From positions 1 through 10,087 of the IMG/VR virus record IMGVR_UViG_2737471839_000018: 10,087 nucleotides of DNA. The stretch is one strand, 5' to 3'. Positions 7,594 to 7,666 of this stretch are shown in pieces. Origin of the DNA: a virus (Duplodnaviria; Heunggongvirae; Uroviricota; Caudoviricetes). Each line of letters begins with the position of its first letter. Position 1 is the first letter of the stretch. The translations under genes and the position numbers were made by a program. Under the pieces are notes generated by a model that was given only the letters and a program-made list of their open reading frames with translations, was not told where the DNA came from and made no database searches.

Positions 7594-7666
7594 GTGTTGA
7601 ACACCAATTTAAGCCTAGGTGTTAAACACGTCAAGTGTTGAACACTTATTTTTTTTCCTGCATACT
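7594..7666 (+). promoter_or_regulatory. Operator cluster (three GTGTT(G/A)AACAC palindromes) overlapping a sigma70-like promoter for the RHH-like gene
   Basis: Palindromes at 7594-7604, 7619-7629, 7635-7645 (centre spacing 25 and 16 bp). -35 TTGAAC (7638-7643) lies inside the third palindrome, then a 17-bp spacer and -10 CATACT (7661-7666). RBS AAGGGG and ATG at 7696 follow. Confidence 0.55.

Follow-up and report, generated by a model that had tools for sequence, protein, structure and literature searches.

The immI region of phage P22 is controlled by small ribbon-helix-helix (RHH) repressors, Mnt and Arc, which bind short symmetric operators at back-to-back divergent promoters; its maintenance repressor is transcribed divergently from the operon that it silences, and a small cis-antisense RNA, sar, adds a translational block. 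In the satellite P4, left-operon control through eta and kil was reportedly treated by Forti et al. in 1999. A published account describes P4 kil as the end of a longer open reading frame (ORF) that is coupled to vis, with eta translation protecting read-through transcripts from termination (PMC10111431). In the phage-inducible chromosomal islands (PICIs) of Gram-negative bacteria, AlpA is the known activator, and the 2018 paper that extended the PICI family to these bacteria called the repressor in these elements 'unclear' (PMC6092414). Here, the control region of one such element was analysed in a window of 10,087 nt (the whole stretch studied, positions 1 to 10,087 of the IMG/VR virus record IMGVR_UViG_2737471839_000018, Caudoviricetes). 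It is a PICI/P4-like satellite about 10 kb long; in an E. coli chromosome, a copy with 99.9% identity is flanked by clpS and cspD. Sequence comparisons make it likely that three palindromes of this element are the operators of a 59-amino-acid (59-aa) RHH-type repressor, which would block two divergent promoters, P_left and P_right, inside a P4-type control region.

A sequence-only reading of the window had described three copies of GTGTT(G/A)AACAC within 52 bp, placed between the divergent replication operon and a small RHH-like gene, with the third copy over a TTGAAC -35 element. The three copies were found where it put them, at 7594-7645, the TTGAAC box lies at 7638-7643 inside the third site, and the intergenic placement holds as well, with both promoters overlapped by the sites. 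The parts of the switch are:

7594-7604: operator O1 (site A, the first site), GTGTTGAACAC, just past the P_left -10 box and over the predicted P_left start
7619-7629: operator O2 (site B, the second site), GTGTTAAACAC, in the P_left spacer and abutting the -35 box
7635-7645: operator O3 (the third site), GTGTTGAACAC, covering the P_right -35 box; proposed autoregulatory site
7606-7634, minus strand: P_left, predicted sigma-70 promoter of the operon running from the kil/icd-like gene to the primase gene, found by a consensus scan
7638-7666, plus strand: P_right, predicted promoter of the RHH gene, read from the sequence
7696-7875, plus strand: RHH-like gene of the YlcI/YnfO family, 59 aa, proposed repressor

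Each site has perfect 5-bp inverted arms around one central base, and the arms are longer in sites 1 and 3 (6+1+6 and 7+1+7). P_left is near consensus (-35 TTGACG at 7634-7629, a 17-bp spacer and -10 TAAATT at 7611-7606); site 1 begins one base past its -10 box and site 2 fills its spacer, an overlap that was absent from the sequence-only reading. P_right combines the TTGAAC box with a 17-bp spacer and a -10 CATACT at 7661-7666, and the two -35 boxes stand back to back, 3 bp apart. Because the three sites overlap both promoters, a protein occupying them should block both P_left and P_right; moreover, because P_left is near consensus, it would need a repressor rather than an activator.

With at most one mismatch allowed, there is no fourth copy of the palindrome anywhere in the window. 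Matches with two mismatches do occur elsewhere in it; they are unrelated and not above chance, and two of them are P4-type origin iterons. Shuffled sequence contained a mean of 0.28 matches, and the observed count was reached in 0 of 200 shuffles, which speaks against reading the palindromes as a chance cluster. They could also be taken for RNA hairpins or terminators, and the consensus scan did flag site 1 as terminator-like on the minus strand; however, several operator classes in related islands are non-palindromic, so that no hairpin is possible, and yet they hold the same positions. Contradicted by the comparative data, an origin by chance or as RNA structure is hardly credible.

These comparative data come from about 30 loci with homologues, taken from reference genomes, public assemblies and E. 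coli, which span Escherichia, Edwardsiella, Salmonella, Klebsiella, Pectobacterium, Serratia, Xenorhabdus, Proteus and other Enterobacterales. Site B starts 76-78 nt (mostly 77) upstream of the RHH ATG in 30 of the 33 tabulated loci, and it abuts [GCT]TCAA, which is the P_left -35 box, in 27 of 27 loci checked; the P_left TAnnnT -10 box is kept in 21 of 27. Nearly all related loci have site A at a distance of 22-26 bp leftward from site B, and the relatives keep a P_right -10 box, [TC]ATACT, some 30 nt ahead of the ATG. Most relatives have their third site at B+45, over the P_right -10 and +1 positions. The B+16 site over the -35 box is exclusive to the specificity class of the window; the window itself has lost the B+45 site, and two other loci, L003 and L004, have copies at both B+16 and B+45.

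A search for the same palindrome in related islands, proposed by the sequence-only reading, found sites whose core varies with the residues by which the protein is predicted to read DNA. In particular, the operator sequence tracks protein residues 11-15, giving at least 12 specificity classes:

Class QT[VLI]AA: operator GTGTTGAACAC
Class QSLKS / QALKA: operator GTGTGGCCCAC
Class QALRA: operator GTGTAGACCAC
Class QSVTA: operator GTGTAAGACAC
Class [KR]KLEA: operator GTGTCAGCCAC
Class KRFDV: operator GTGTCGGACAC
Class KKIDV: operator GTGTCAGACAC
Class QKTSV: operator GTGnnGGACAC
Class QK[LV]Q[AT]: operator GTGGACTCCAC
Class QK[IL]QA with an M[TE]RDHIN arm: operator CTGGATTCCAG
Class QKMSA with an MTRDNVN arm: operator CTGGCACCCAG
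Two DUF3950-type variants: operators TGTGCGCACA and GTGCACCCCCAC

N-terminal arms of the MTRD..N type pair with CTG...CAG outer operator bases, and the DUF3950-type variants (L029 and L039) occupy the same slot with operators of their own. The pairing of KKLEA with GTGTCAGCCAC recurs across genera, in E. coli O157:H7 and in Xenorhabdus. Operators are kept within a class at 60-68% protein identity (the window compared with L003 and L004); for P0027, whose protein is 75% identical, the strand is different and the operators are different. In the 101-aa variant of L043, the operators were not clearly readable.

Three Xenorhabdus loci (L013, L021 and L032) show apparent deletions between operator copies, with site A fused to site B or C and one or both promoters lost, and the switch may decay through its direct operator repeats. 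The idea that islands sharing a host must be strictly heteroimmune is ruled out by Xenorhabdus indica, which has three copies of the same class; X. mauleonii has two different classes.

The partner of the sites is narrowed down by a near-isogenic E. coli island, L033, whose identity to the window is 88-100% over 7396-7595, 24-76% over 7596-7795 and 100% from 7796 onwards. The swapped block runs from site 1 through RHH codon 33, that is, it holds the operators, the promoters and codons 1-33. Because the swap is limited to the operators and these codons, the partner can be neither Kil nor the leader RNA, and neither the C-terminal half of the RHH protein nor a product of the downstream genes. 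In the reverse direction, a scan of IMG/VR with the operator pair returned 49 contigs, 48 of which have an RHH gene with a QT[VIL]AA strand immediately downstream, at protein identities down to about 60%. The one other contig is unrelated. L086, an IMG/VR contig of an AT-rich organism, carries GTGTTGAACAC twice inside longer inverted repeats (3979-4011), in an unrelated context with no RHH homologue nearby; its palindromes are probably coincidental.

These data also bear on whether the palindromes are bound by AlpA, by the primase-helicase (which would treat them as iterons) or by Kil, with the RHH gene incidental. AlpA is the activator already established for Gram-negative PICIs (PMC6092414), and the palindrome and the P4-type iterons (TGTTCACC) have TGTT-A in common. 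However, the L033 swap left kil and the flanks 88-100% identical, and the sequences of Kil and AlpA do not follow the operator class: similar ones occur with different classes, and different ones with the same class. The primase, for its part, has its own TGTTCACC iterons at 4674-4846, which rules out the palindromes as primase iterons. Overall, a partner other than the RHH protein is very improbable. We conclude from the sequence comparisons that the 59-aa protein and the sites are a matched pair, and the three palindromes are very probably binding sites of the neighbouring candidate repressor. Further, 50,697 phage records searched by tblastn with the RHH protein gave no match, and the idea of a competing homologue encoded by the helper was therefore dropped.

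The protein itself matches NF041551 (NCBIfam YlcI_YnfO_N) with 59.7 bits (cut-off 30, E 2.1e-16) and phrog_949. It has no Pfam match at E <= 0.01, RHH families appearing only faintly at E up to 10, and no match by sequence in the PDB; neither a curated RHH family nor a solved RHH protein was thus matched at the sequence level. An AlphaFold (AF2) monomer model, with a predicted local distance difference test (pLDDT) score of 80, has helices at residues 19-28 and 35-58 with pLDDT > 90. Residues 1-18 are modelled with low confidence and without a strand, an expected outcome for a strand that needs the dimer to form. The model resembles solved RHH proteins in structure; Foldseek returned no significant match for it. 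In the turn before helix B, residues G32, E33 and S34 are invariant and T35 nearly so among 32 homologues, which gives the G-x-S/T/N turn of RHH proteins. Moreover, the covariation and the swap indicate indirectly that the N-terminal strand sets operator specificity, as it does in that fold. An hhalign comparison with Arc gave a weak alignment (5% probability) that places R16 on Arc R13, and T12 and A14 on the base-contacting Arc residues Q9 and N11. 'RHH-like' is accepted as a description of the 59-aa protein, with the caveat that the model is that of a monomer.

The E. coli K-12 prophage proteins YlcI and YnfO (DUF3950) share the NCBIfam family of the 59-aa protein; their genes in K-12 presumably lie in lambdoid prophages and not in a satellite control region. 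No function was found for YlcI, YnfO or DUF3950 in the literature searched. The present results suggest sequence-specific repression as a likely function for this DUF3950-related family, which includes two uncharacterised E. coli K-12 genes.

Only two genes run rightwards, the 59-aa gene at 7696-7875 and a second 59-aa gene, orf59b:

7933-8112, plus strand: orf59b, 59 aa, co-oriented with the RHH gene, phrog_21027

Two small co-oriented genes could be read as a type II toxin-antitoxin pair, in which the RHH protein is the antitoxin, orf59b encodes the toxin, and the palindromes autoregulate the pair and are unrelated to satellite replication. Substitutions in orf59b by codon position (38 > 29 > 22) fit coding on the plus strand. 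Domain searches detected no toxin domain in its product, and most related loci lack orf59b and have the RHH gene by itself, so that no conserved adjacent toxin gene accompanies the RHH gene; in addition, the two best-conserved sites overlap the divergent P_left and not the RHH promoter. We consider a toxin-antitoxin role highly unlikely. The orf59b product has a basic N-terminus and a conserved ERFAPCAF.LE..LKE motif, and the gene is restricted to some islands.

The putative repressor does not stand alone in this region, which also contains a Kil homologue, an antisense RNA and a long open frame:

7293-7496, minus strand: Icd-like gene, 67 aa, first gene of the P_left operon (NF033153, E 1.8e-19)
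7484-7575, plus strand: SymR-like antisense RNA gene, with a -10 box TATGAT at 7484-7489 and a predicted start near 7497
7293-8213, minus strand: eta-like long ORF of 306 codons, whose in-frame 3' part is the Icd-like gene

NF033153 (E 1.8e-19 for the window protein and 1.6e-21 for the P4 protein) and phrog_1743 are each matched by the Icd-like protein as well as by P4 Kil, the latter translated from the P4 record; pairwise BLASTP between these two proteins found nothing, and their homology is seen at the profile level only. The PHROG label 'transcriptional repressor' probably derives from the obsolete 'cI protein' annotation of P4. As in P4-type elements, a Kil homologue comes first in the early operon, and kil forms the last part of a long ORF whose start is coupled to alpA.

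The antisense RNA lies between kil and site 1, has two hairpins and a U-rich 3' end, and is complementary to the ribosome-binding site and leader of the Icd-like gene. Its TAnnnT -10 box, inside the first kil codons, has invariant T, A and T positions. RNAalifold on 26 loci gave 25 pairs, of which 17 have compensatory changes, and our own tally of the printed pair table counts about 100 G-U cells, which pair only on the plus strand, against 3 A-C cells. The Rfam SymR family (RF01809) matches 7497-7569 on the plus strand with 32.8 bits (E 0.004), below its gathering score of 61, and a model built from the RNAs of these loci (R1) matches K-12 symR with 35.1 bits (E 7.5e-8); the sub-threshold score and the reciprocal match together therefore point to a distant SymR relative and not a curated member. 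R1 has no match in P4. In turn, no match to C4 or isrK was found by Rfam in the window, even at E up to 1, and P4 itself gives 74.9 bits for C4 and 60.8 bits for isrK. Judged by its pairing pattern and these matches, the element at 7484-7575 is a SymR-like cis-antisense RNA over the kil ribosome-binding site.

The long ORF has its ATG at 8213, 10 nt past the alpA stop and behind a GGGGAG Shine-Dalgarno sequence, and it runs antisense to orf59b, the RHH gene, both promoters and the operators. Summed over 26 loci, the stretch from kil to the RHH start has 20 stop trinucleotides in the icd frame, compared with 165 and 102 in the two remaining frames, and the part antisense to the RHH gene contains 12 against 75 and 76; in 20 of the 26 loci, the icd frame has no stop at all. 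A T in front of a His or Gln codon creates a TGA on the opposite strand, and in 31 distinct RHH genes T-ending codons precede His or Gln codons in 0 of 155 cases, compared with 22% in the rest of these genes; in the window's other genes, 21 of 125 codons that precede a CAN codon end in T. Many loci have the start of the long ORF at the stop of an upstream gene (alpA or a Bro-like gene), or overlapping it, with a good Shine-Dalgarno sequence in front. Where it runs alone, its substitutions show no codon periodicity, and its product has no PHROG match; thus the frame is kept open by selection, which extends to synonymous-codon choice in the RHH gene, and its protein sequence is not conserved. 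On the same two grounds, the possibility that it encodes a conserved protein was rejected. By analogy, such an open but unconserved frame is the signature of P4 eta.

In many related islands (L002, L005, L006, L018, L022, L024, L029 and L037), alpA and the RHH gene are separated by an additional minus-strand gene whose product has about 170-320 aa and carries the annotation 'Bro-N domain-containing' in E. coli relatives, and the long frame then starts at the stop of this inserted gene. In E. coli RefSeq records, the Prokaryotic Genome Annotation Pipeline (PGAP) has called 'Icd-like' proteins that are too long, at 111-327 aa, and that extend over the operators and the opposite-strand RHH gene (L039 194-529, L042 197-670 and L043 194-1177); the RHH-like gene of L043 is unannotated, and L044 has a 'pseudogene icd-like' between the RHH gene and alpA. 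Annotation of the control region is inconsistent between genomes.

These elements suggest how the switch could work. Probably, one dimer would bind each 11-bp site, with a two-stranded sheet (residues ~11-17) reading the variable centre of the site and the N-terminal arm reading its outer bases. Occupation of O2 in the P_left spacer and of O1 at the start point would turn the replication operon off, and occupation of O3 on the gene's own -35 box would provide negative autoregulation. In the resting state, the RHH protein, autoregulated from P_right, would sit on O1 and O2 and block the strong internal P_left, and a constitutive SymR-like RNA would stop kil translation on transcripts that escape; if P4 is a guide, this translation block would expose the transcript to Rho. 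On induction, the helper phage would turn on alpA, a step shown in related islands, and transcription would run past alpA into the eta-like frame, because the hairpin at 8177-8196 has its T-run in the other direction only and none in the minus direction. Ribosomes coming from alpA would go on to translate the eta-like frame, so that transcription crosses the repressor gene and the operators and reaches kil and the replication genes; as such coupled ribosomes need no kil ribosome-binding site, both blocks would be bypassed. Commitment would follow when convergent transcription shuts down P_right.

A different assignment of roles would have the RHH protein bind its sites without being the maintenance repressor, serving as an Arc-like transient brake or fine-tuner, or as immunity against sister satellites, with quiescence left to the antisense RNA and the lack of AlpA. 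The P4 framework already supplies RNA- and translation-level immunity together with an alpA-driven route, alpA is required for induction of related islands (published work, including PMC6092414), and several copies of the same class can share one genome. Set against this, the RHH gene is divergent from the operon that it would control, as are Mnt and Stl, so that its expression is independent of the operon being on; a strong promoter has operators in its spacer and at its +1 position; and autoregulation suggests a steady-state level. A role short of maintenance is therefore an unlikely but serious alternative to the maintenance repressor favoured here.

Several points weigh against a repressor switch of this kind. 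Both promoters are predictions, and P_right, with 8 of 12 consensus positions, is weak, falling below the threshold of the consensus scan, which did not call it. Shared descent of linked sequences explains part of the covariation between protein and operator, and the swap and the cross-genus cases lessen this problem without removing it. The long frame fails to stay in phase with kil in 6 of the 26 loci, and the RHH gene contains a weak hairpin of terminator type on the minus strand (7751-7734). The sequence-only reading had proposed an autoregulated repressor switch: its geometry and the match of protein to sites across islands stand, while binding and the direction of regulation are what we infer from them, and the route of induction is drawn by analogy.

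A further proposal, which we offer tentatively and with less confidence than the operator assignment, concerns the layout as a whole. The operators and the DNA-reading half of the RHH gene may form a swappable specificity module, carried antisense inside the eta-like ORF and kept free of stops by selection, and AlpA-driven read-through may silence and displace the repressor and bypass the antisense RNA. If so, the AlpA-activator picture and the classical repressor switch would be two halves of one mechanism. If functional, the antisense-embedded layout would also stand out as an unusual gene overlap, with selection on one of the frames doing no more than keeping it open.

The remaining genes run from right to left, and the rest of the window holds the following features:

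8849-10087: integrase gene, the rightmost gene
8223-8432, minus strand: alpA, homologue of the regulator/excisionase and counterpart of P4 vis (PF05930, E 2e-17; PGAP coordinates from the 99.9%-identical record)
8177-8196, plus strand: terminator-like hairpin with a T-run, which ends P_right transcripts
4860-7300, minus strand: remainder of the P_left operon, comprising a hypothetical 106-aa gene, a DUF4222 gene and the gene for a D5/P4-type primase-helicase
4860-6692: D5/P4-type primase-helicase gene
3635-3907, minus strand: small regulator gene between the replication and capsid modules, matching PHROG 'transcriptional activator' families

The downstream genes of the P_left operon (4860-7300) overlap or abut one another. 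Leftward beyond the primase gene are genes for a single-stranded DNA-binding protein, the regulator of the PHROG 'transcriptional activator' type and a lambda-type major capsid protein, with a head decoration protein and a small terminase subunit farther left still. The regulator at 3635-3907 looks PerC-like by eye, a name that no search returned, and its role may be to activate the late genes of the island. The P4-type TGTTCACC iterons form inverted arrays of P4 type-1 (CTGTTCACC / GGTGAACAG) at 4674-4846, directly downstream of the gene for the primase-helicase, and presumably mark the replication origin; these arrays also surfaced in Rfam as spurious microRNA-precursor matches. The element is common: parts of its 901-bp control region are present in 1405 of 5426 complete E. 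coli genomes.

The analysis supplies a concrete, testable repressor candidate for Gram-negative PICIs. In the literature searched, no RHH protein, operator or YlcI/YnfO function has been described in PICIs or P4-like elements, and a protein repressor switch in Gram-negative satellites, suggested here by sequence comparison, would be new to them within that literature. The sequence-only reading had contrasted such a repressor with AlpA activation and P4-style RNA immunity. No protein repressor of Gram-negative PICIs was described in the literature searched, but this island combines both: the RHH module is embedded in a P4-like kil/eta region with an antisense RNA and an alpA-coupled ORF, and protein, RNA and translation control are therefore combined. 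Moreover, the at least 12 matched natural pairs of protein and operator would be a ready set of probably orthogonal mini-repressors and, if the pairing is true, a data set from which an RHH recognition code could be read.

Compared with P4, the window has the same succession of an alpA/vis homologue and a coupled long ORF that ends as Kil, a constitutive promoter inside that ORF, an RNA aimed at the kil leader, and TGTTCACC origin iterons. P4 differs in having no known protein repressor at its PLE promoter (of the pair PLE/PLL) and in using a same-strand C4/CI RNA that acts on an isrK/seqA target; both of these RNA elements are missing from the window, which carries the SymR-like cis-antisense RNA instead. 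Only the window has an RHH gene, operators and a second gene embedded opposite the eta-like ORF. The C4-type RNA immunity of P4 is replaced here by a protein repressor, as proposed above, and a cis-antisense RNA. That RNA and SymR of the SymR/SymE pair of E. coli K-12 match in both directions, with the window scoring under the Rfam gathering threshold, and they share a geometry in which the RNA starts at the start codon of its target and covers the ribosome-binding site; the target of SymR is SymE, whereas that of the window RNA is the Kil/Icd-like protein.

The likeness to Stl/Str control in Staphylococcus aureus pathogenicity islands (SaPIs), drawn by the sequence-only reading, holds for the divergent layout and the proposed function. 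Stl (Rpr) of the SaPIs and PICIs of Gram-positive cocci is also a repressor divergent from a replication operon, with the same proposed silencing role; it is, however, a larger helix-turn-helix protein relieved by a helper-phage protein, whereas the window protein has an RHH-like fold and its release is possibly transcriptional. Because the folds differ, the likeness is functional only. The window module has no sequence relationship to Stl or to P22 immI, where hhalign against Arc stayed at 5% and no homology is detectable. With P22 immI it nevertheless shares an RHH-type repressor, divergent promoters and a cis-antisense RNA. The P22 operon encodes an antirepressor, and that of the window kil and replication genes; P22 uses one tetramer-bound operator, and the window, as proposed, three single-dimer sites; and, unlike P22 immI, the window module lies antisense inside a translated ORF. 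Overall, the switch logic is closest to that of P22 immI, with Mnt/Arc and sar RNA, its function resembles that of SaPI Stl, and its framework is the left-operon control of P4.

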